Assembly: GCA_039029535.1 (NCBI GenBank)
Contig: JBCCFW010000201.1
Location: 1 to 13,132 of the forward strand
Length of the DNA: 13,132 nt
From: Acidobacteriota bacterium
Lineage (GTDB): Bacteria; Acidobacteriota; JBCCFW01
Reading direction: 5' to 3'
Shown here in pieces: positions 921 through 9,559 of this stretch. Under the pieces are notes generated by a model. The model did no database searches, was not told where the DNA came from, and saw only the letters and a list, made by a program, of their open reading frames with translations. The translations under genes and the position numbers were made by a program. Position 1 is the first letter of the stretch. Every line of letters starts with the position of its first letter.

Positions 921-1907
921 ATGAGCGAGCGTCTCGCCTTCGTCACCGGAGGCACGGGCTTCGTCGGCGCGGCGGTCATCCGCGCGCTGTGCGCGGAGGG
1001 CACGCGGGTGCGCGCGCTCGTGCGTCCGGGCTCGGACCGCAGCAACCTCGCCGAGCTCGACGTCGAGCTGGTCGAGGGCGACCTGTCGTCCCGGGAGGCC
1101 CTGCTCGCGGGGATGACCGGCTGCGACGAGGTCCATCACTGCGCGGCGCTCTACGCCTTCTGGTCGGCAGACCCCGCCGAGTTCATCGAGAGCAACGTCG
1201 AGGGCACGCGACGCATCATTCAGGAGGCCGTCGAGGCGAAGGTGTCCCGCTTCGTGCACTGCAGCTCGGTCGCGACGGTCGCCCCCATCCGGGGGAAGGC
1301 GGCGACCGAGGACTCGCAGGCCGACCCCGACAAGGCGCCCGGCCCCTACAAGCGGAGCAAGATCCTCTCCGAGCACGAGGCCTTGCGCCTGGCTGGCGAG
1401 GGCGCGCCGGTGGTGGTGGTCAATCCAGCGGCTCCGGTCGGTCCCGGCGACATCAAGCCCACGCCCACCGGCCAGATGGTCCTCGACTTCCTCGAGGGTC
1501 GGATGCCCGCCTTCGTCGACACGAGCCTCAACGTCGTGGACGTGGACGACGTCGCGCGCGGTCACCTGCTCGCCGCGCGGAAGGGTCGGGTCGGCGAACG
1601 CTACATCCTCGGGGGCGAGAACCTGACTCTCGAAGAGATCCTCGGGCTGCTCGCCGAAGCCAGCGGTCGCAAGGCGCCGACCTTGTGCCTTCCGCACTGG
1701 GTCCCGGAGATGGTCGCGCGTTTCTCCGAAGCCTGGGCCAAGGTGTCGGGCCGACCGCCCCGCGTCGCCTTGGAGTCGGCGCGGCTCGCCCGTCACCACA
1801 TGCGCTTCGACGACACCAAGGCCCGCGAGGAGCTCGGGCACTCCTCCCGCCCGGCCCGCGAGGCCCTGACGCGGGCGGTGGAGTGGTTCACGCGTGATGT
1901 CGGCTGA
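921..1907 (+). CDS. NAD(P)-dependent epimerase/dehydratase, extended SDR family (HpnA / dihydroflavonol-reductase-like sugar epimerase fold).
   Basis: ATG at 921 lies 20 nt after the aminopeptidase stop. The N-terminal Rossmann motif is FVTGGTGFVGAAV and the catalytic YxxxK is PYKRSK. The product is 328 aa and ends with TGA at 1905-1907. Confidence 0.8.
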   Translation: MSERLAFVTGGTGFVGAAVIRALCAEGTRVRALVRPGSDRSNLAELDVELVEGDLSSREALLAGMTGCDEVHHCAALYAFWSADPAEFIESNVEGTRRIIQEAVEAKVSRFVHCSSVATVAPIRGKAATEDSQADPDKAPGPYKRSKILSEHEALRLAGEGAPVVVVNPAAPVGPGDIKPTPTGQMVLDFLEGRMPAFVDTSLNVVDVDDVARGHLLAARKGRVGERYILGGENLTLEEILGLLAEASGRKAPTLCLPHWVPEMVARFSEAWAKVSGRPPRVALESARLARHHMRFDDTKAREELGHSSRPAREALTRAVEWFTRDVG

Positions 1908-1938
1908 AGCGCCCCACGAGCCGATGGAGAAGAGAGGC

Positions 1939-2712
1939 ATGCTGCACGTCCTCGGAGCGATCGCCCTGCTCGTCCTCGGCTGGGCGACCCTCCTCTTCTT
2001 CGCGCAGCGTCAGCTTCTCTTTCCTGCCCCCCCAGCCCCCGTGGCTCCCCCGCCTCTACCGACCGACGCCGAGCGCGTCGAGCTCGGACCCGACGCGGTC
2101 GAGGCCTTCTACTTTCCACCCCGCGGAACGACGCCCGGCCCCGTCGTCGTCTACACCCACGGCAACGGCGAGCTCATCGACTACTCGGTCCGCGAGGTCG
2201 AGGACCGACGACAGCGAGGGCTCGGGCTGCTCCTCGTCGAGTACCCGGGCTACGGTCGCTCGGGCGGACGACCGAGTGAGGCGAGCATCACGACGACCAT
2301 GCTCGCGGCCCACGACTTCCTGACCCAGCGTCCCGAGGTCGACGCCGCGCGCATCGTCGCCCACGGACGCTCGCTCGGCGGCGGCGCCGCCTGCGTGCTC
2401 TCGCGTCACCGGCCGCTGGCCGCGCTCGTGCTCGAGTCGACCTTCACCAGCGTGCGGGCCTTCGCCCCTCAGTTCGGGATGCCGGGCTTCCTCGTCCGTG
2501 ATCCCTTCGACAACCTCGGGGCAGTGAAGGTCTTCGACGGACCGATCCTCCTGATCCACGGTGACCATGACGAGGTCATCCCACCCTCGCACGCCACCGA
2601 GCTCGCCGACGCCATCGGCGGCGAGGTGCAGTGGCTGCCCTGTGGTCACAACGACTGTCCGCCACCGTGGTCGAGGATCGAGACCTTCCTGTCCGAGCAC
2701 GACTTGCTCTGA
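1939..2712 (+). CDS. Membrane-anchored alpha/beta-fold serine hydrolase, ABHD13/ABHD17-like (Hydrolase_4 type).
   Basis: One N-terminal hydrophobic helix (MLHVLGAIALLVLGWATLLFF) is followed by HGNGE, a GxSxG nucleophile elbow (HGRSLGGG), the catalytic Asp region (LLIHGDHDEVIP) and the His motif (CGHND). I prefer the ATG at 1939 because GGAGAAGAGAGG sits just upstream. In-frame alternatives are GTG 1894 (ORF-track start), ATG 1897 and ATG 1924. These overlap the epimerase stop. Confidence 0.75.
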   Translation: MLHVLGAIALLVLGWATLLFFAQRQLLFPAPPAPVAPPPLPTDAERVELGPDAVEAFYFPPRGTTPGPVVVYTHGNGELIDYSVREVEDRRQRGLGLLLVEYPGYGRSGGRPSEASITTTMLAAHDFLTQRPEVDAARIVAHGRSLGGGAACVLSRHRPLAALVLESTFTSVRAFAPQFGMPGFLVRDPFDNLGAVKVFDGPILLIHGDHDEVIPPSHATELADAIGGEVQWLPCGHNDCPPPWSRIETFLSEHDLL

Positions 2713-4029
2713 CGAAAAAAAGCCGCCCGACCGGCCCCGGACGATGCCGGGGCAGGCCGGACGACGTGCTCCCTCCCGCGCTCCCACGCACGCGACCGGC
2801 CTCGGTCTCCCGTGGGGGTTGCTCGGGGATCGGGAGCACCAGGGTCTCCCCCCTGTCATCCATTGCTGGCACGCGCTAGAGCTGCGAGCAGCTCGCTGGT
2901 GCGTGCCGACCTCGATCTTCGGCAGGACACCCTCGCCGACGACCAGGTTCACCGTGCCGACCCTCTCAGCCAGCTCGGCGTAAGCCTCCAACTCCTTCAA
3001 ACGCTGAAGGACCGGATGGTCCGCCATGACCTGCGCCGTCTGGGCCAGCGAGCGCGTGGCGGCCGCCTCCTCACGTCGGGTGATGACGTTGGCCTCGGCC
3101 TCCTTGCGCGCCTCGATGACCCGGTTGAGCAACTCACGCATCTCGCCGGGAAGGACCAGGTCCTTCACGACGACACGCTCGACCACGAGACCGACCGCCT
3201 CGGCCCGGGCTCGGACCTCGGCGAGCAGCCCCTCGGTCAGCGCGACGCGATCGGCGAGCAGCTCGTCCAGGGACCGCGAGGTCACCGCCTCGCGGGCGGC
3301 GACCTGCACGGCCAGGTAGAGCACCTCGTCCGCATCCTGCGCCGTGCCCACGAGACGCCGGGCGTCGGCCACGTGGTACTCGGCCGCCAGGTTGAGCCGC
3401 AGGCTCACGCGGTCGGAGGTCATGACCTCCTGGGCGTTCACCTTGAGCTGACGCTGACGCAGGTCGACGGTCGTGTAGCGCACGTCGTTCTCGACTCGCC
3501 ACGCGGCGTGACGACCCGGACCGAGCTCGGCGTCGACGACCCCATCGACGAGACGCAAGGCCACCGCACCCTGGGGCACGGTCGTCTCCACGTAGTCGGT
3601 GGACGGGACGAGACGCACGAGCTCACGCGCCAGCGGCGCCGTCTCGACGCCCGAGACGTCGACGATCTCCACGTCGATCGCCTTCTCCACGTGGACGTGA
3701 CCGTTCACGCGCCGACGGCTCGTCGCCACGGTCCAGATCGCGTGCTCGCCGTGACCCAGCCACAGCACCGGCACCCCGGCCCGACGCACGAGCGCTCGCT
3801 CGGTGCGACCGAGACGCACGACCTGAACGTCACCGTGCGCGACCAGCGCCAGCTCGTCCGGCCGCAGCCGTGCGAGGAGCACGTCGGTGTCGTGGTGGGT
3901 CACCGTCAGCGGACCCGGCCAACGCCAGAGCCGATGGACGCCCTCACCGAGGTACCGCACCGGTCGACTCCGTCGCGTGACGAGGACGCGCTCGCCCGGC
4001 GCGACCTCGATTCGCTTGCTGAGAATCAT
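2056..4029 (-). CDS. SPFH/band-7 domain protein (stomatin/slipin-like). No predicted transmembrane helix. The last ~290 codons of the listed ORF are probably not genuine protein.
   Basis: ATG at 4029 has a strong Shine-Dalgarno (AAGGAGAGAGTC) upstream. The SPFH core is recognisable (LGPGRHAAWRVENDVRYTTVDLRQ ... VKDLVLPGEMRELL ... coiled-coil EARKEAEANVITRREEAAA ... VNLVVGEG). Homologues end shortly after this point. Here the frame stays open, crosses the terminator at 2715..2762 and continues codon-aligned antisense to the hydrolase until TAG at 2056. Confidence 0.7.
   Translation of the reverse strand: MILSKRIEVAPGERVLVTRRSRPVRYLGEGVHRLWRWPGPLTVTHHDTDVLLARLRPDELALVAHGDVQVVRLGRTERALVRRAGVPVLWLGHGEHAIWTVATSRRRVNGHVHVEKAIDVEIVDVSGVETAPLARELVRLVPSTDYVETTVPQGAVALRLVDGVVDAELGPGRHAAWRVENDVRYTTVDLRQRQLKVNAQEVMTSDRVSLRLNLAAEYHVADARRLVGTAQDADEVLYLAVQVAAREAVTSRSLDELLADRVALTEGLLAEVRARAEAVGLVVERVVVKDLVLPGEMRELLNRVIEARKEAEANVITRREEAAATRSLAQTAQVMADHPVLQRLKELEAYAELAERVGTVNLVVGEGVLPKIEVGTHQRAARSSSACQQWMTGGRPWCSRSPSNPHGRPRPVACVGAREGARRPACPGIVRGRSGGFFSSEQVVLGQEGLDPRPRWRTVVVTTGQPLHLAADGVGELGGVRGWDDLVMVTVDQEDRSVEDLHCPEVVEGITDEEARHPELRGEGPHAGEGRLEHERGQRPVTREHAGGAAAERASVGDDARGVDLGTLGQEVVGREHGRRDARLTRSSARATVARVLDEEQPEPSLSSVLDLADRVVDELAVAVGVDDDGAGRRSAGWKVEGLDRVGSELDALGVGR
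2715..2762 (-). terminator. Intrinsic terminator for minus-strand transcription: a GC-rich hairpin followed by T7 on the minus strand.
   Basis: On the plus strand an A7 run is followed by the inverted repeat GGCCCCGG-acgatg-CCGGGGC(A)GGCCGG. Read on the minus strand this is a hairpin followed by TTTTTTT. It lies just outside the hydrolase stop and inside the read-through tail of the SPFH ORF. Confidence 0.5.
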
Positions 4030-4267: not shown

Positions 4268-4343
4268 TGGTGTGGATGAGGGGATTCGAACCCCCGACCG
4301 ACAGGTCTTCAGCCTGTTGCTCTACCTGCTGAGCTACGTCCGC
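4268..4343 (-). tRNA. tRNA-Phe (anticodon GAA)-like gene with encoded CCA. The acceptor stem carries two C-A mispairs, so it may be a variant or a pseudo-tRNA.
   Basis: The minus strand reads GCGGACG-TA-GCTC-AGCAGGTA-GAGC-A-ACAGG-CTGAAGA-CCTGT-CGGTC-GGGGG-TTCGAAT-CCCCT-CATCCAC-A-CCA. This gives a full cloverleaf: a D arm with G18G19, a 5-bp anticodon stem, loop CU-GAA-GA and a T loop TTCGAAT. Positions 2:71 and 6:67 are C-A, and position 37 is G rather than A. Confidence 0.65.
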
Positions 4344-4659
4344 GTTCTCGAATCTCTCGAGTTGCCTCGTGGCACTTGCCCGACCTTCACGCGCTCGATC
4401 GACGACCAAGCCCAGCCCGCAGCGACACCTGGAAGCTCCAGGCGCACCGGGAGGGCTGCCACGCCGAGCGCAGCCGAGCAAAGTCTTCTTCTGTTTGGTT
4501 TGGAGTGAACGGATGTGGTGAATGACGACGAAACGGACGGGTGCACGAGGCCCGCCTCCGCAGGGCTCATGCCGACTCCCTCCGCCGGCACGAGAACCCG
4601 TCACGTCGACACGGGACTCGTCTGACCCCCGTCACTCAGGTGAGCGACGGGGGGCTAGG

Positions 4660-4696
4660 ACGCGAAAAGGGCCGGTCCCTTGCGGTTCCGGCCCTT
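4660..4696 (-). terminator. Intrinsic terminator on the minus strand, downstream of the candidate small gene.
   Basis: On the minus strand GGGCCGG-aaccgcaaggga-CCGGCCC is followed by TTTTCGCG. It is preceded by two further hairpins (CCCCGTCACTC/GAGCGACGGGG, and CTGAGT..ACTCAG with GCAGC..GCTGC). Confidence 0.5.
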
Positions 4697-4741
4697 CCGA
4701 CGAGTGCAGCTTCGAGGCTGCGTGCTGAGTGACTCAGCGGG

Positions 4742-4906
4742 TCATCGGAGGACCGTCCCTTCCACGCCGGCGTCGGTGCCCCTGGGGGATCCGAGGCCGT
4801 CCAAGAGGGAGATCGCATTCGCGTCGGCAGGGCAGACCATCGCCTGGTGCCAGGGCGTGCTCGCCTTGGCCGCCGGACGGGCTGGACTGTCGTGTCTCGG
4901 GAACAT
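4742..4906 (-). CDS. Candidate small protein of 54 aa (MFPRHDSPARPAAKASTPWHQAMVCPADANAISLLDGLGSPRGTDAGVEGTVLR). Function unknown.
   Basis: On the minus strand a sigma-70-like promoter (TTGACC, 17 nt, TACATT) sits about 35 nt upstream of a consensus Shine-Dalgarno AGGAGG (GAGAGGAGGTCCC-ATG). The in-frame ATG follows (internal Met of ORF-track 4742..5020), then stop TGA, then three hairpins ending in the 4660..4696 terminator. Confidence 0.35.
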   Translation of the reverse strand: MFPRHDSPARPAAKASTPWHQAMVCPADANAISLLDGLGSPRGTDAGVEGTVLR

Positions 4907-4931
4907 GGGACCTCCTCTCGGAGCAAGAGAC

Positions 4932-4966
4932 GGGAATGTAAGACAGGCACGCAATGAGGTCAAGCC
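4932..4966 (-). promoter_or_regulatory. Putative sigma-70-type promoter for the small gene (-35 TTGACC, -10 TACATT). Coordinates are approximate.
   Basis: The minus strand reads cTTGACCtcattgcgtgcctgtctTACATTcccgtct. The spacer is 17 nt, and the segment is locally AT-enriched. Confidence 0.35.
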
Positions 4967-5043
4967 CACACTTTGATTTCGATGACATTGCGAGCCTTCA
5001 CGGGGCATTGCGGCACGCAAGCCAGCCCTCTCGCAGGCGCTGC

Positions 5044-5121
5044 CCGAACAAACACGAGGCCCCGAACTGTTGTTCGAACAGCTCGGGGCCCCAAGACTCG
5101 TCTCACCCGGGGTGAGACGAC
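5044..5121 (-). terminator. Tandem hairpins directly 3' of the giant gene on the minus strand. Likely its terminator.
   Basis: CGTCTCACCC-g-GGGTGAGACG occupies about 5099-5119, and GGCCCCGAACTGTTG-ttcg-AACAGCTCGGGGCC about 5058-5090. On the minus strand the second is followed by TCGTGTTTGTTCGG. Confidence 0.45.
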
Positions 5122-5128
5122 GGCACGT

Positions 5129-8100
5129 TCACTCGCAGTTCATCGGGTCGGTCGCCTCGAGGACGAGCTGGACCCAGCCGTCATTGCCGCCGACCTTCTC
5201 GCTCTGGCCATCACCATTGACGACCCACGCGTAGTGGTTGTTCCACGCATGGGGGTCGAACACGCCGGTGAGATCGGCCGTCTGCGACACGTGATGCGTG
5301 CTGGCGCCCGGATTGCCGACGTCGCGGAAGTCGATGTCGGTGAGTCCCTGCATGATGTGGCTGGGCACGCCCGAAGCGGGGGTCCAATCGGGCCTTCCGG
5401 CCATCATCCGGAAGATGACCAGGGGATCGAGCTCGACTGCCGTCTCCCAGATCGGCGTCGCCTCTGCCGTCGCCATGCGCTCGTCCGTCGGATGGAGCGG
5501 CAGCTCGAGGTGCACCATCTCGAGACCCGGAAGGAGCTCGCCGGAGACCGGATCGAGCGGCGACGCCAGGGTGTTGGGCGCCGGACCCGTGTCGTTGGAG
5601 GGAATGAGCAGGTGGAGCACCGCCCCGTGAACGAGGTCGTCGCCCGCGATCCGGAAGCGCCGCGGCACCACGTGACGGAGGGAGCTGAACCCGAAGATCT
5701 CGGTCCCTCCGCTCGCGAAGAGCAGGCCGAGCTGGTAAGCCCGAATCGTGTGTGAGGTGTTGGGCCTCAACTGCTCGGTCGGCGTCCAGCCAGAGACGAA
5801 CAACGGGACGCATTCGAGCGCCGAGTTGGGAACCGCCGGCTCGAAGGTCAAGTTGGTCGGCGGCGGCAAGGAGATGACGGTGGGGGCCGGCTGGCCGGTG
5901 GGGCTCGCCACCCGACGCTCGCTTCCCAGCGGCGTGGAAGTCACGGTCATCCAGGCAGGACCATGGCCAGCGAGGGTCTCGAGCTCCTGGCGGCTGAATG
6001 ACGGTGACCCGCTACCGAAGACGGTCTCCTCACGATAGCGACGCGGATTGCCGGCTGGATCGGTGGCATCGGAAGAGGGGTCGTAGATCCAGCCCCTCTC
6101 GTGAATCGTCGCGAAGGCAGGGTCCCCGATGCCCATCCGGACCACGAGGCCGGCATTGGCGATGTCCGCCTGATCCTCGGCCAGGTCCCAGTCGGCGGCA
6201 TGGGTACCGACCGTGAAGTTCGTCATCGAGAAGGTTCGGCCCACCACCGGGGCCGTGCCGAAGTCGAACTCGTGCAGGAACTGAGCGAGCCACCCGCCTC
6301 CCGAGGGGCTGAACTGTGACACGAACGCATTGATCGTCTCGTCCGGATTGTCCCCCCCCACGGTAGTACCTCGCACGCCAGCGTGATTGAGGCCTTCGAA
6401 CCCCGTGATCGGCGAGACGGACATGGTGGTCGTGCTGGCGGGCGTGAACCCATTGATCTCGCGACGCGCTTCCTTCTGGAAGAGACCGCGGAGAGCCGCT
6501 CCCTCCATGGGTCGGACTGCCGGATCCTCGGGAGCATTCGGAGGCGTGAAGGTCGAGCCCGTGTCGAAGGGTTGATCCTCGTGGAACCCGGACGGTAACG
6601 AGAGGGTGTTGTCACTGCCCTCGGGCAGGGCGTGGCAATGCGCGCAGGCGGGGTCGACGCCGGGGTTCGCTGGCACGATGTGAAACAGCTTCATGCCGCG
6701 CAGGGCCCCCGAGCCCTGTGTCGGATCGTTGTAGCCCGCCGGCGTTTGGCTCGGGTTCAGCTTTCCCGAGAACTCTCTCGTCTTGAGCTGCTTGGGGTTC
6801 GGCGGATAGTGAATGGAGTTGATGAACTCCTCGAAGACCGCGATCTCGTCATCGTCGAGGATGCGGTCACGGCCGAGGAGCCCCACGAACGCGCCGTTGA
6901 AATCCTGGAAGGTGTTCCGGTCGCCACGCCAGTGGTACGGCGCGTTGGTCACCAGCCGTTGGCTGGTGGTCGTGAGAGGCTGACCCGTGACGGGATCCGT
7001 CGGAGTCAAGTCACCGATCGGAGCGACCTCATGGTTCAGGAGCCCCTGGAGCGACTGGGTCACCATGTAGCGTTTCGGCGCGCCGAAGCGCAGCTCGTTG
7101 TTGAGATTGGGAGGTCCGACGTCGGTCGTGACCACGGTGAGGAGCTGCTCGGGGACGCAGGATGCTCCGGCAAAGGCATCACCGGCATCCATCGCGGTGA
7201 CGTCCCCGTCACAGTCACAGTCACCGACCTCGGACACCTCGATGACGGTGTCCCCATCACAGTCGACACCATTGAGGCAGGTCTCTCCTGCCGTGACGTC
7301 GACGTCGGCGACACCATCGCAGTTGCAGTCACCCACCTCGACCGGATCGATGATGGTGTTCCCGTTGCAATCGAGCCCCTTGACGCCAGGAAGGCCACCA
7401 CTGAGGTCCCAGGCCAAGCCGTCGGTCCGACCGTCGACGTGGCAGCTCGCACAGGAGTCGAAGCCGTTGCCGGAGAGCCGGGCGCTGTACAAGAACTCTC
7501 GGCCTTCCTTGACGTAGTCCGGCGTCGGGTCGTGGAGGTCCCAGGGCCACTCGAGATGGGGCATCGTCGGACCGTTGGGATTGAAGACCGTGATCGAGTT
7601 GGACACGCGATTGAGGATGATGAGACGGTCGGGCTGACCGGACTCCCCTTCCTGCAGGGCGAGACCACGAGGACCGGCCATCGGGCTGGGCTCGGGCACG
7701 ACATCGAAGCTCTCGACCAGCCAATCGTCAGTGTTGGCCCCAGTCAGCGTGACGCGTCCGATTCGGTCGCTCCCGAAAGCCGCGATGAGCACCTGTTTCT
7801 CGCCACTCGCGCTCTCGTGAACGATGATGTCGGTGGGCTGCACCAGAGCCCGACTGCGATCGACCGGCATCTCGGCCCCACTGACGAACATCGCATTGAG
7901 ATCGCGGGACAGGACCGTGGGAGTCGGCGAGCAGGGGTCGGGGATGACGTAGAGGAAGCTCTCGACGAAACCGGTGCTGAGGAGCGAAACGGCGTGCTCA
8001 CCGTGCACGCCGGCCTCGCGGTTCAGCGCCCTGGCACCCACCACGTAGAGCGTGCCTGCATCGTCGAAGGCCATGTTCCAGTTGGTGGTCCCGAGACCAC

Positions 8101-9139
8101 CACGGATGCGGGAGTCAGCACGGCGGCTGAAGGGCGAGGGACCGCCGAGGAGCGACTTGGAGGTCTGCGACCAGAGGTCGGCGTCGTAGCGGAAGCCACG
8201 CACGGTGTCCTCGCTCTGGTGTGAGCCGCCCAGGTGTCCCAGCACGAAGAGCCGATCACAGGTCGGGTCCGGGCTCGTGTCGAGAGTCCAGGGCTGCTTG
8301 AGGGCGAAGGTGTCGATCCGGAAGTCCCCGAAGACGTCATCGGGGGTCAGCCCGTCGCCATTGATGTCGTCCATGGCGTCGATGTCGCCGTCGAGGTCGA
8401 CATCGTTGGTGGCCGTCGGAACGAAGCGGCGGAAGCGCTCGGCTCCTCCCGGAAGAGTGCACATCGGGTCGACCTCGGGGTGACAGCCCGGGACGAGGTT
8501 CTCGTAGTCACCCTCCACGGTGGCCAGGGTCACCGGATCGTAGATGCCGAGCGTGTCCAGGGTCATGTGGGTGACCACGAGCACGGTCATCGGCAGGCCC
8601 GTCCCCGGCGCTCCCACGTCCACTTCGGTCATGTCGAGCGGCTCGTCCATGACCTCGATGGTCTTGAAGTCGAACATCCGGAGCTCGTCGACGCTCTTGG
8701 GGTCCTTGGGATCGGCGGCGGTCCAGACCAACTGGCCGGTGGTGATCGAGTCCCCGAGGAAATTCGCCACGTGGAAGCGCCCAAGAGTCTGCGACCAGCG
8801 CACCGAGACGGGCTCGAGCCCGGTCGGGATGCGCATCTCGAACTGCCCCTGGATGGCCATTCCCTGGGTGGCACCGTAGATCTCGAGCGAGTTGTCCGGC
8901 GTGTTCACGACGAGCAGGAAGTCCTGCTCCTCACCGGTCTTGGTGTCCTGAAGAGTGATGAGCTCGAGCGGATGGACCTGAGGACTCTCGACGTTGTAGT
9001 AGTCAGTCCGGCCTTGCGCCCAGGCCGGGGCGGCCGGCGTGAGGGAAACCAGGAGCGCGAGGGCCCCCAGTGCCCCCACTCGGAGCTCGCGAGTGAGGTG
9101 CGCGCGAACCGTTCGACGTGCTGGCTTGCGGTGGAACAT
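5129..9139 (-). CDS. Large secreted multidomain protein of 1337 aa. It has a Sec signal peptide, beta-propeller (YVTN/NHL-like) repeats, EF-hand/dockerin-like Ca2+ loops, a di-heme cytochrome c peroxidase/MauG-like core (two CxxCH) interrupted by Cys-rich Ca-binding tandem repeats, and a C-terminal domain of about 270 aa with no recognisable similarity.
   Basis: I prefer ATG at 9139 because GGGAGG lies 3 nt upstream and it begins a textbook signal peptide (MFHRKPARRTVRAHLTRELRVGALGALALLVSLTPAAPAWA/QG). The ORF-track start GTG 9358 adds 73 non-signal residues and is less likely. Propeller-blade motifs include VVNTPDNSLEIY, VANFLGDSITTG and ILNRVSNSITVFN. Heme 1 is LYSARLSGNGFDSCASCH (codons 7453..7439) and heme 2 is KLFHIVPANPGVDPACAHCH (about 6632..6646), with APYHWRGD between them. 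Stop TGA is at 5129-5131. Confidence 0.8.
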   Translation of the reverse strand: MFHRKPARRTVRAHLTRELRVGALGALALLVSLTPAAPAWAQGRTDYYNVESPQVHPLELITLQDTKTGEEQDFLLVVNTPDNSLEIYGATQGMAIQGQFEMRIPTGLEPVSVRWSQTLGRFHVANFLGDSITTGQLVWTAADPKDPKSVDELRMFDFKTIEVMDEPLDMTEVDVGAPGTGLPMTVLVVTHMTLDTLGIYDPVTLATVEGDYENLVPGCHPEVDPMCTLPGGAERFRRFVPTATNDVDLDGDIDAMDDINGDGLTPDDVFGDFRIDTFALKQPWTLDTSPDPTCDRLFVLGHLGGSHQSEDTVRGFRYDADLWSQTSKSLLGGPSPFSRRADSRIRGGLGTTNWNMAFDDAGTLYVVGARALNREAGVHGEHAVSLLSTGFVESFLYVIPDPCSPTPTVLSRDLNAMFVSGAEMPVDRSRALVQPTDIIVHESASGEKQVLIAAFGSDRIGRVTLTGANTDDWLVESFDVVPEPSPMAGPRGLALQEGESGQPDRLIILNRVSNSITVFNPNGPTMPHLEWPWDLHDPTPDYVKEGREFLYSARLSGNGFDSCASCHVDGRTDGLAWDLSGGLPGVKGLDCNGNTIIDPVEVGDCNCDGVADVDVTAGETCLNGVDCDGDTVIEVSEVGDCDCDGDVTAMDAGDAFAGASCVPEQLLTVVTTDVGPPNLNNELRFGAPKRYMVTQSLQGLLNHEVAPIGDLTPTDPVTGQPLTTTSQRLVTNAPYHWRGDRNTFQDFNGAFVGLLGRDRILDDDEIAVFEEFINSIHYPPNPKQLKTREFSGKLNPSQTPAGYNDPTQGSGALRGMKLFHIVPANPGVDPACAHCHALPEGSDNTLSLPSGFHEDQPFDTGSTFTPPNAPEDPAVRPMEGAALRGLFQKEARREINGFTPASTTTMSVSPITGFEGLNHAGVRGTTVGGDNPDETINAFVSQFSPSGGGWLAQFLHEFDFGTAPVVGRTFSMTNFTVGTHAADWDLAEDQADIANAGLVVRMGIGDPAFATIHERGWIYDPSSDATDPAGNPRRYREETVFGSGSPSFSRQELETLAGHGPAWMTVTSTPLGSERRVASPTGQPAPTVISLPPPTNLTFEPAVPNSALECVPLFVSGWTPTEQLRPNTSHTIRAYQLGLLFASGGTEIFGFSSLRHVVPRRFRIAGDDLVHGAVLHLLIPSNDTGPAPNTLASPLDPVSGELLPGLEMVHLELPLHPTDERMATAEATPIWETAVELDPLVIFRMMAGRPDWTPASGVPSHIMQGLTDIDFRDVGNPGASTHHVSQTADLTGVFDPHAWNNHYAWVVNGDGQSEKVGGNDGWVQLVLEATDPMNCE
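9017..9139 (-). other. Signal peptide of the giant protein. Predicted cleavage after AWA.
   Basis: A positively charged n-region (HRKPARRTVRAH), a hydrophobic core (LRVGALGALALLVSL) and an AxA site (PAWA-QG). Confidence 0.6.
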
Positions 9140-9197
9140 GGGCCTCCCGAGAAAGTCGTGGCCGACCCGTGACACGGCCGGCCGGGTGACCGACCGA

Positions 9198-9210
9198 GTT
9201 CCTGGAACTG
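9198..9210. promoter_or_regulatory. Perfect 13-bp palindrome AGTTCC-W-GGAACT, about 60 nt upstream of the giant-gene start codon. Candidate operator.
   Basis: Plus strand AGTTCCTGGAACT equals its reverse complement. It lies in the 5' region of the minus-strand giant gene. A second hairpin, CCTGACG-actccca-CGTCAGG, sits near 9306-9330. Confidence 0.35.
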
Positions 9211-9374
9211 GCCGGCTACTCTCGACAACGGGGCTGCGAGCCCAGTGCGCAGGCAAATCGCCGAGCTCGTCCCGATCCGCCGCGGTCGCCACTCCCCCGG
9301 GAGGACCTGACGACTCCCACGTCAGGCAATCCGGTGACCTAGCGGACGCTGACCGCACGGCCGTGGAGAGCGGT

Positions 9375-9530
9375 GGGACTCACTTCCCTGGCCTGACGGG
9401 GCACGGGGGCATGGAGCGCGCCAGTGGCGTTGCCGTGACCTCACGACGACCGCGCGACTCAGCACGGCCCTGGAGGGCCGGGGGATTCACTTCCCCGGCC
9501 CGACGGGGCGTGGGGGCATGGAGCGCGCCA
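9375..9530. repeat. Two copies of a 49-bp direct repeat (about 90% identical, 107-bp period) in the asnS / giant-gene intergenic region.
   Basis: Copy A (9375..9423) is GGGACTCACTTCCCTGGCCTGACGGGGCACGGGGGCATGGAGCGCGCCA. Copy B (9482..9530) is GGGATTCACTTCCCCGGCCCGACGGGGCGTGGGGGCATGGAGCGCGCCA. Five substitutions separate them. Each copy has internal CCCCG..CGGGG dyad potential. Confidence 0.6.
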
Positions 9531-9559
9531 AGGGCGCGCGCCGGCCCCCACACCTGAAA

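Follow-up and report, generated by a model that had tools for sequence, protein, structure and literature searches.

The stretch of DNA analysed here, called the window below, is contig JBCCFW010000201.1 of an Acidobacteriota metagenome-assembled genome (MAG) in its entirety, 13,132 bp long with a GC content of about 68%, and the gene of interest occupies positions 5129 to 9139 on its minus strand. The longest reading frame at this place spans 5129–9358 (minus strand), with an ATG start codon at 9139 that is preceded by GGGAGG and a stop codon at 5129–5131, and the product of 5129..9139 is identical to the NCBI entry MEM7248975.1 ("hypothetical protein AAF533_26855"). GC content at third codon positions (GC3) is 0.84 and uniformly high along the open reading frame (ORF), as expected of a real gene in a contig with 68% GC; overlapping shadow ORFs differ in this respect. 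An original prediction, made from the letters of the window alone, had pointed to the same ORF but gave its product as 1337 residues instead of 1336. It had also described a secreted, multidomain protein in which a propeller is followed by a di-heme core of the cytochrome c peroxidase (CCP)/MauG type and then by an unrecognised C-terminal region, and this description is supported. The features of the gene and its product, in the order of the protein, are as follows.

5129..9139, minus strand: complete coding sequence of 1336 amino acids (aa) plus stop codon, MEM7248975.1, locus AAF533_26855, aligning end to end with its homologues
9017..9139, minus strand: predicted Sec-type signal peptide, aa 1–41, read from the sequence, with a basic n-region, a hydrophobic core and a putative cleavage site between AWA and QG
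7535..9016, minus strand: seven-bladed YVTN-type beta-propeller, aa ~42–535
8300..8527, minus strand: low-confidence, Asp-rich excursion within the propeller, aa ~205–280, containing CHPEVDPMC and DVDLDGDIDAMDDINGDG
6305..7534, minus strand: di-heme core with the fold of bacterial cytochrome c peroxidase (bCCP) and MauG, aa ~536–945
7439..7453, minus strand: heme-1 motif CASCH (C563, C566, H567), inside the Pfam CCP_MauG match at aa 546–574
7136..7393, minus strand: paralogue-specific Cys/Asp-rich insertion, aa 583–668, with two 36-aa repeats, four EF-hand-like loops and eight Cys
7022..7087, minus strand: segment F685...K689...VTQSLQGLLN-H-E704, with candidate equivalents of the inter-heme aromatic residue and the distal Glu of bCCP
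6920..6946, minus strand: family signature NAPYHWRGD, aa 732–740, in which W737 and R738 are invariant
6632..6646, minus strand: heme-2 motif CAHCH (C832, C835, H836), with G-x-K-L-F-H upstream
5894..6304, minus strand: tail module 1, aa ~946–1082, with the motifs HEFDFGxxPxVG and TPLGSERR, a predicted local distance difference test (pLDDT) score above 90 and invariant D959, P964, P1070 and G1072
5132..5893, minus strand: family-specific, beta-rich tail, aa ~1083–1336, with conserved RHEAPRRFR, LPLHPT and WETAVE

One way to account for so composite a protein would be that assembly or annotation has fused two or three neighbouring genes, a reading to which the MAG origin of the contig and the over-extended look of a neighbouring ORF (2056–4029) lend some weight. 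The family itself speaks clearly against it. Among 5.8 billion proteins searched, 91 relatives came up. About 75 are full-length proteins of 1040–1270 aa whose alignment runs from the signal peptide through to the final residues, and one of these comes from the closed 5.99-Mb genome of Acidobacteria bacterium Mor1. Because more than 70 homologues from independent assemblies keep this architecture contiguous and uninterrupted, and because GC3 stays uniform and high across the ORF, the artefact is refuted, in agreement with the original prediction.

Scanning one genome per species gave 388 relatives, and the family amounts to about 100 clusters at 50% identity. The full-length type is found mostly in MAGs of Planctomycetota and Acidobacteriota, and a shorter type, about 880 aa long, was met in Phycisphaerae, Bryobacterales and others. 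Family genes are also multiplied within single genomes. At least eight paralogues carry the AAF533 locus prefix of the source MAG (P0001–P0004, P0018, P0028, P0034 and P0040), each of them 34–62% identical per domain to MEM7248975.1, while another MAG holds a tandem pair (L002, 4557–7937 and 8155–11541) and several others contribute two family loci each.

Every homologue begins with a hydrophobic leader that ends right before a conserved mature N-terminus, QGRTDYxNVESPQVHP, and judging from the leader the protein would be exported by the Sec pathway and cleaved between AWA and QG. In MEM7248975.1 this N-terminus reads QGRTDYYNVESPQVHP (aa 42–57, window 8969–9016); it is among the most conserved stretches of the family and might seal the propeller or bear a pyroglutamate at its N-terminal end.

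Conservation, counted here and below over 74 aligned homologues, is absolute at the heme sites. The first motif stands in the context RLSGNGFDSCASCH (C563/C566/H567) and the second in the context KLFH...CAHCH (C832/C835/H836), so both contexts quoted in the original prediction are present, at aa 563–567 and aa 832–836. The four heme Cys and the two His are invariant in 74 of 74 sequences, and no further Cys is conserved in the core. The G-x-K-L-F-H upstream of the second motif lines up with the sequence context of heme 2 in MbnH-like proteins and in the gamma subunit of hydrazine synthase (HZS).

The bCCP/MauG superfamily is marked by two CxxCH motifs, one in each of two lobes, some 140–170 residues apart, and the family shows both the motifs and a two-lobe di-heme cytochrome fold. 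In E. coli YhjA, for example, the second motif lies 140 residues after the heme-1 His, and the spacing is 140–147 aa in the ~880-aa relatives, 159–170 aa in most of the family and 269 aa in MEM7248975.1. The last value is due to an 86-aa, lineage-specific loop insertion. Heme sites much further apart than in canonical enzymes, as had been claimed for this protein, are therefore real here but peculiar to one paralogue, the family norm being near-canonical.

The insertion responsible (aa 583–668) contains 8 Cys and 15 Asp, and each of its 36-aa repeats holds four Cys along with two EF-hand-like loops of the form D-x-[DN]-x-[DN]-[GT]. More than 70 of the 74 homologues lack it, a shorter version being present in one sister paralogue only. 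Its pLDDT is below 50, and it is predicted to be disordered. A word-index search with the insertion gave no relatives, Pfam gave no match to it, to the propeller excursion or to the tail, and no tandem repeat was found under it at the DNA level. Calcium binding by the block would be a reasonable guess from the loop motifs; the Cys/Asp-rich block that the original prediction had placed between the hemes is thus real, while the Ca-binding role given to it has motifs, and no Pfam match, behind it.

The structure was predicted as two overlapping halves, aa 1–560 and aa 520–1336. The first half (pLDDT 83, predicted template modelling score (pTM) 0.85) folds as a beta-propeller of seven blades with YVTN-like motifs, as in the YVTN/YncE-type propellers (PF10282, PF21783), and the second half reaches pLDDT 77 and pTM 0.84. 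Within the second half the tail, aa ~946–1336, has a pLDDT above 90 and is as conserved as the propeller. Scores of this kind in both half-models and in the tail indicate a rigid multidomain body. The excursion from the propeller at aa ~205–280 is an exception to this confidence (pLDDT ~50); it carries DxDxDG-like motifs at aa 246–263 and consists mostly of gaps in the homologues apart from a conserved D-x-D-x-D core.

To our knowledge, hydrazine synthase was long believed to be without relatives, and how it evolved is an open question. Its beta and gamma subunits have been solved from Kuenenia stuttgartiensis (PDB 5C2V), and they form a single fused protein in Ca. Scalindua. Among solved proteins, these two subunits are structurally the closest to the present propeller and di-heme unit, a relationship that the original prediction had not considered. 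A profile built from the family matches the YVTN propeller 1l0q (7e-10), HZS-beta (3e-8), the MbnH-like protein 6e1c (1e-6) and HZS-gamma (2e-4), and beyond the best match the propeller model also finds other seven-bladed propellers, including YncE and 6-phosphogluconolactonase. The di-heme matches, both profile and Pfam, are confined to the helix and CxxCH region of heme 1. Immediately past this heme, the protein reads DGLAWDLSG (consensus tDGLaWDLgD), a motif that is common to HZS-gamma (CASCHYErGQTTGLIWDLGDEG) and is not that of classical CCPs. Altogether, MEM7248975.1 is very probably an exported di-heme redox enzyme of an HZS-beta-gamma-like branch of the bCCP/MauG superfamily.

The likeness might be pressed further, to a genuine hydrazine synthase or a part of an anammox-type nitrogen pathway, considering that HZS-beta and HZS-gamma are the best PDB matches of the two domains and that GLxWDLGD is common with HZS-gamma. 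Nearly everything else contradicts this. The window contains no HZS-alpha homologue and none recurs in 17 close or 82 superfamily loci. With only four invariant Cys in the core, the third heme-linking Cys of HZS-gamma (Cys165) is absent. Identity with the subunits beta and gamma is 17–18%, the NCBIfam model hydrazine_gamma scores 11.3 bits against a cutoff of 625, and MEM7248975.1 has about 390 C-terminal residues that the subunits do not have. Its hosts are not anammox bacteria, being Acidobacteriota and diverse Planctomycetota MAGs rather than Brocadiia, and the key HZS residues are unconserved in beta-gamma homologues at large (PMC12758564). A role in hydrazine synthesis is effectively refuted.

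That propeller and di-heme domain can be fused outside the anammox bacteria has already been described. Fused beta-gamma-type proteins with a seven-bladed propeller and two canonical heme motifs are widespread there, with the key HZS residues unconserved; their function is unknown, and no member has been characterised (Hagglund et al. 2025, PMC12758564). The present family shares with those proteins a propeller fused to two CxxCH motifs on its C-terminal side, as well as hosts in the Planctomycetota and other phyla, and is likened to them by architecture. In the clades that the paper singles out, an alpha-like gene lies close by, and extra multi-heme domains are present in some; the family described here, in contrast, is stand-alone, carries no extra hemes and ends in a C-terminal module. 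What is new here is this stand-alone gene, with a family-specific C-terminal module, at least eight paralogues in one genome and, in one case, the Cys/Asp insertion. The finding is a bioinformatic assignment to an architecture already reported in general form, and no specific new chemistry is indicated.

Members of the superfamily differ in the sixth ligand of the electron-transfer heme, which is Met in bCCP, Tyr in MauG and His in HZS-gamma. MauG, MbnH and BthA (3L4M, 6E1C and 6V59) are di-heme oxidases that form a bis-Fe(IV) state, and an enzyme of the MauG/MbnH type could use such a state to oxidise its own propeller or tail in cis, or a partner protein docked to it. We regard this as unlikely. 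The MbnH model TIGR04039 (the "MXAN_0977" di-heme enzyme) reaches 18 bits where its cutoff asks for 362.85, matching aa 540–569 only, no conserved Tyr occupies the aligned heme-2 ligand position, and no modified residue can be deduced. Partner genes were sought in the window and in the 17 close and 82 superfamily loci: no gene resembling the HZS alpha subunit, mauA/mauB or mbnP lies in the window, and none recurs among these loci, nor does any other conserved partner. Membership of MbnH/TIGR04039 was tried as a candidate and rejected, given the same score and the lack of an adjacent MbnP-like gene, and with it falls the resemblance to the myxobacterial-type "di-heme enzyme" family that had been proposed at the outset. 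MEM7248975.1 is not hydrazine synthase, MauG or MbnH.

A more ordinary possibility is a di-heme cytochrome c peroxidase that detoxifies H2O2 and has acquired accessory domains. To map residues onto a classical bCCP, hhalign was used to compare E. coli ccp/yhjA (structure 9qdt) with the family core. The unsplit alignment set heme 2 against the peroxidatic heme, a mispairing that stems from the internal duplication. A local alignment of the heme-1 lobe to YhjA is nearly gapless (E 5e-5), and it places the Trp of the bCCP FWDGR motif opposite position 685 (F in 52, W in 9 and Y in 4 of the 74) and the distal Glu (PIEM) opposite E704 (E in 64, D in 6); K689, between them, is invariant (74/74). Offsets from the heme-1 His are +37 and +56 in the family and +39 and +59 in YhjA, and this agreement, together with the local alignment, argues for the two putative equivalences. 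In the heme-2 lobe, where the alignment is weak (E 0.011), R884 matches the Arg of the bCCP LRN motif (+48 vs +50) and H919 the His of YFH. As to the Ca2+ site that marks the lobe interface in the superfamily, conserved Asn residues occur in the core (N702, N732 and N781). A homologue search intended to yield a varied CCP profile brought back nothing below 85% identity and was of little use.

The same comparison brings out how far the family has departed from bCCP. Where bCCP has its distal His (position 581), the family has D, T, G or N instead, and a Phe stands where the Met ligand aligns; FWDGR is replaced by [FWY]-P-x-D-K, NAPYHWRGD is extra, and the proteins are three to four times larger. 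Similarity to CCPs covers about 40 residues only, and the core comes with more than 900 further conserved residues. No CCP matches as closely as HZS-gamma does, and at least eight paralogues in one MAG, with tandem copies elsewhere, would be unusual for a detoxification enzyme. An ordinary peroxidase is improbable as well.

Our preferred reading, held with somewhat more than even confidence, is that MEM7248975.1 is an exported enzyme with two c-type hemes, from a rare, HZS beta-gamma-like branch of the bCCP/MauG superfamily, that works by an open-heme mechanism. HZS-gamma, itself a homologue of bCCP and MauG, has a surface bis-His heme that feeds an open, water-ligated catalytic heme (PMC12607021). 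Since the present family lacks an inhibitory distal His and has a conserved acidic E704, heme 1 is probably an open catalytic site, as the D/T/G/N occupancy of the distal-His position also suggests.

The working model built on this would begin with Sec export and covalent attachment of the two hemes at C563/C566/H567 and C832/C835/H836. Heme 2, in the C-terminal heme lobe, would exchange electrons with a soluble partner, and the electrons might reach heme 1 by way of F685 or W737, a conserved aromatic residue. There a small oxidant, for instance H2O2, O2 or NO or another N-oxide, would probably be reduced or activated. Propeller and tail could serve as a rigid scaffold that shapes access of the substrate or binds a larger one, while the 86-aa Cys/Asp block would be a surface loop, probably disulfide-stapled and Ca-binding, outside the catalytic design. 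The assignment of electron entry to heme 2 and of catalysis to heme 1 is the more tentative part of the model and is somewhat doubtful. As for the setting, the protein would act as a redox enzyme in the periplasm or outside the cell.

Several observations weigh against this interpretation. The Pfam model CCP_MauG (PF03150) reaches 19.6 bits in MEM7248975.1, below the gathering threshold of 25.6, and covers aa 546–574 only. Several homologues do exceed the threshold (P0062 with 35.8, P0011 with 29.8 and P0016 with 29.4 bits), and 27 of 31 family members match the model at E ≤0.01. A Foldseek comparison of the core with the PDB ranks HZS-gamma (E 0.05) and 6e1c (E 0.15) first, neither of them significant, which marks the core as strongly diverged, and the core of the model is moderately confident, with a pLDDT of about 70–85. 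The residue mapping has its own difficulties: a global hhalign alignment pairs the invariant W737 with the FWDGR Trp where the local alignment pairs position 685, and the Met-ligand position of YhjA aligns, in the weak alignment (E 0.011), to the near-invariant F943 (F in 72 of 74). Finally, the gene neighbourhood gives no pointer to a substrate or redox partner. The comparison of neighbourhoods that the original prediction had called for was run on the 17 close and 82 superfamily loci, by all-against-all clustering of ORFs and two annotated look-ups, and turned up no conserved neighbouring gene family.

It is conceivable, if rather unlikely, that the family consists of secreted oxidative enzymes that have diversified in their substrates. 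An open heme of the HZS-gamma type might then carry out chemistry so far not known outside anammox, for example the conversion of NO or hydroxylamine in aerobic or facultative heterotrophs. Another option would be RoxA- or MauG-like oxidation of a polymer or protein outside the cell, with propeller and unique tail together making up the substrate channel for which HZS relies on its alpha subunit. The rubber oxygenase RoxA (4B2N) offers a parallel, being an extracellular, enlarged di-heme enzyme of the same superfamily that acts on a polymer.

Whatever its substrate, a stand-alone, secreted and multi-copy beta-gamma-like unit exists in Acidobacteriota and Planctomycetota that are not anammox bacteria, and its own conserved C-terminal module stands in place of the alpha subunit. 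Work on a single member would reveal the activity of the ancestral beta-gamma unit, be it peroxidase activity, N-oxide chemistry or the oxidation of macromolecules. Such work would also widen the known range of the bCCP/MauG superfamily, and it bears on the origin of hydrazine synthase.

The tail that follows the core is rich in beta structure and about 390 aa long, and not about 270 aa as had been estimated. Its first module, to about aa 1080, is common to the ~880-aa relatives, and a BLASTP alignment to one of them (P0080) reaches aa 1077. The last ~250 aa are confined to the family: a phmmer search of 1.84 billion cluster representatives gave 114 proteins, nearly all of 1000–1250 aa and matched at their C-terminus. 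Foldseek found no significant match for the tail in the PDB. The final ~65 residues (aa ~1265–1331, window ~5147–5347) match giant adhesins of the SprB-repeat/T9SS kind (P0154, P0190) repeatedly but weakly, which suggests a small beta module of adhesin type at the extreme C-terminus. A Cys near the C-terminus (Cys1335, window ~5135–5137) is almost confined to sequences that also have Cys403 in the propeller (~7931–7933), both being present in 27 sequences, neither in 24, only Cys403 in 21 and only the C-terminal one in 2, and this hints at a disulfide that would tie the tail back to the propeller.

Other endings occur in the wider group. In three proteins of 1447–1481 aa (P0082, P0083 and P0085) the propeller and di-heme unit is followed by arrays of Ig-like domains, and the group formed by these and P0091 (1717 aa) includes one protein with three CxxCH motifs.

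Around the gene itself, the window holds genes for an M24 peptidase, an epimerase, an alpha/beta hydrolase, an SPFH protein, tRNA-Phe, a class II aminoacyl-tRNA synthetase, TauE and a sigma-70 factor, all of them housekeeping or unrelated genes. One further feature lies just past the stop codon.

5055..5093, minus strand: terminator-like hairpin with a 17-bp stem, 36 nt past the stop codon

With this candidate terminator, a 420-bp intergenic region upstream and neighbours that are not conserved, the gene would appear to be a stand-alone transcription unit. In six loci of Planctomycetota, genes for Ser/Thr protein kinases, some of which also have WD40 or TPR domains, are found no more than about 6 kb from a family gene (L008 6534–9476, L015, L017, L018 9175–12498, L019 12187–14514 and L023), a recurrence that is probably due to chance in kinase-rich genomes.

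The upstream intergenic region contains a direct repeat of 75 nt in two copies (window 9355–9429 and 9462–9536), 85% identical and 107 nt apart, the second of which (9462–9536) holds an imperfect inverted repeat of 17 nt. No third copy was found in the window at up to three mismatches, and the pair may be a small repetitive or regulatory element. Downstream of the gene lies the tRNA-Phe gene (GAA; 4268–4343, minus strand), and the stretch of about 785 bp that separates it from the stop codon (4344–5128) is without a convincing ORF, has a lower GC content of about 0.65 and includes one sigma-70-like promoter match (4963–4935, minus strand). Further along, the SPFH/Band-7 ORF (2056–4029, minus strand; 657 aa) has its domain at aa 150–322, and its C-terminal ~250 aa resemble the translation of non-coding sequence. 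This C-terminal part overlaps the alpha/beta-hydrolase gene (1894–2712, plus strand) by about 650 nt, probably because of a stop codon or frameshift missed in the MAG assembly or because the ORF has been over-extended.

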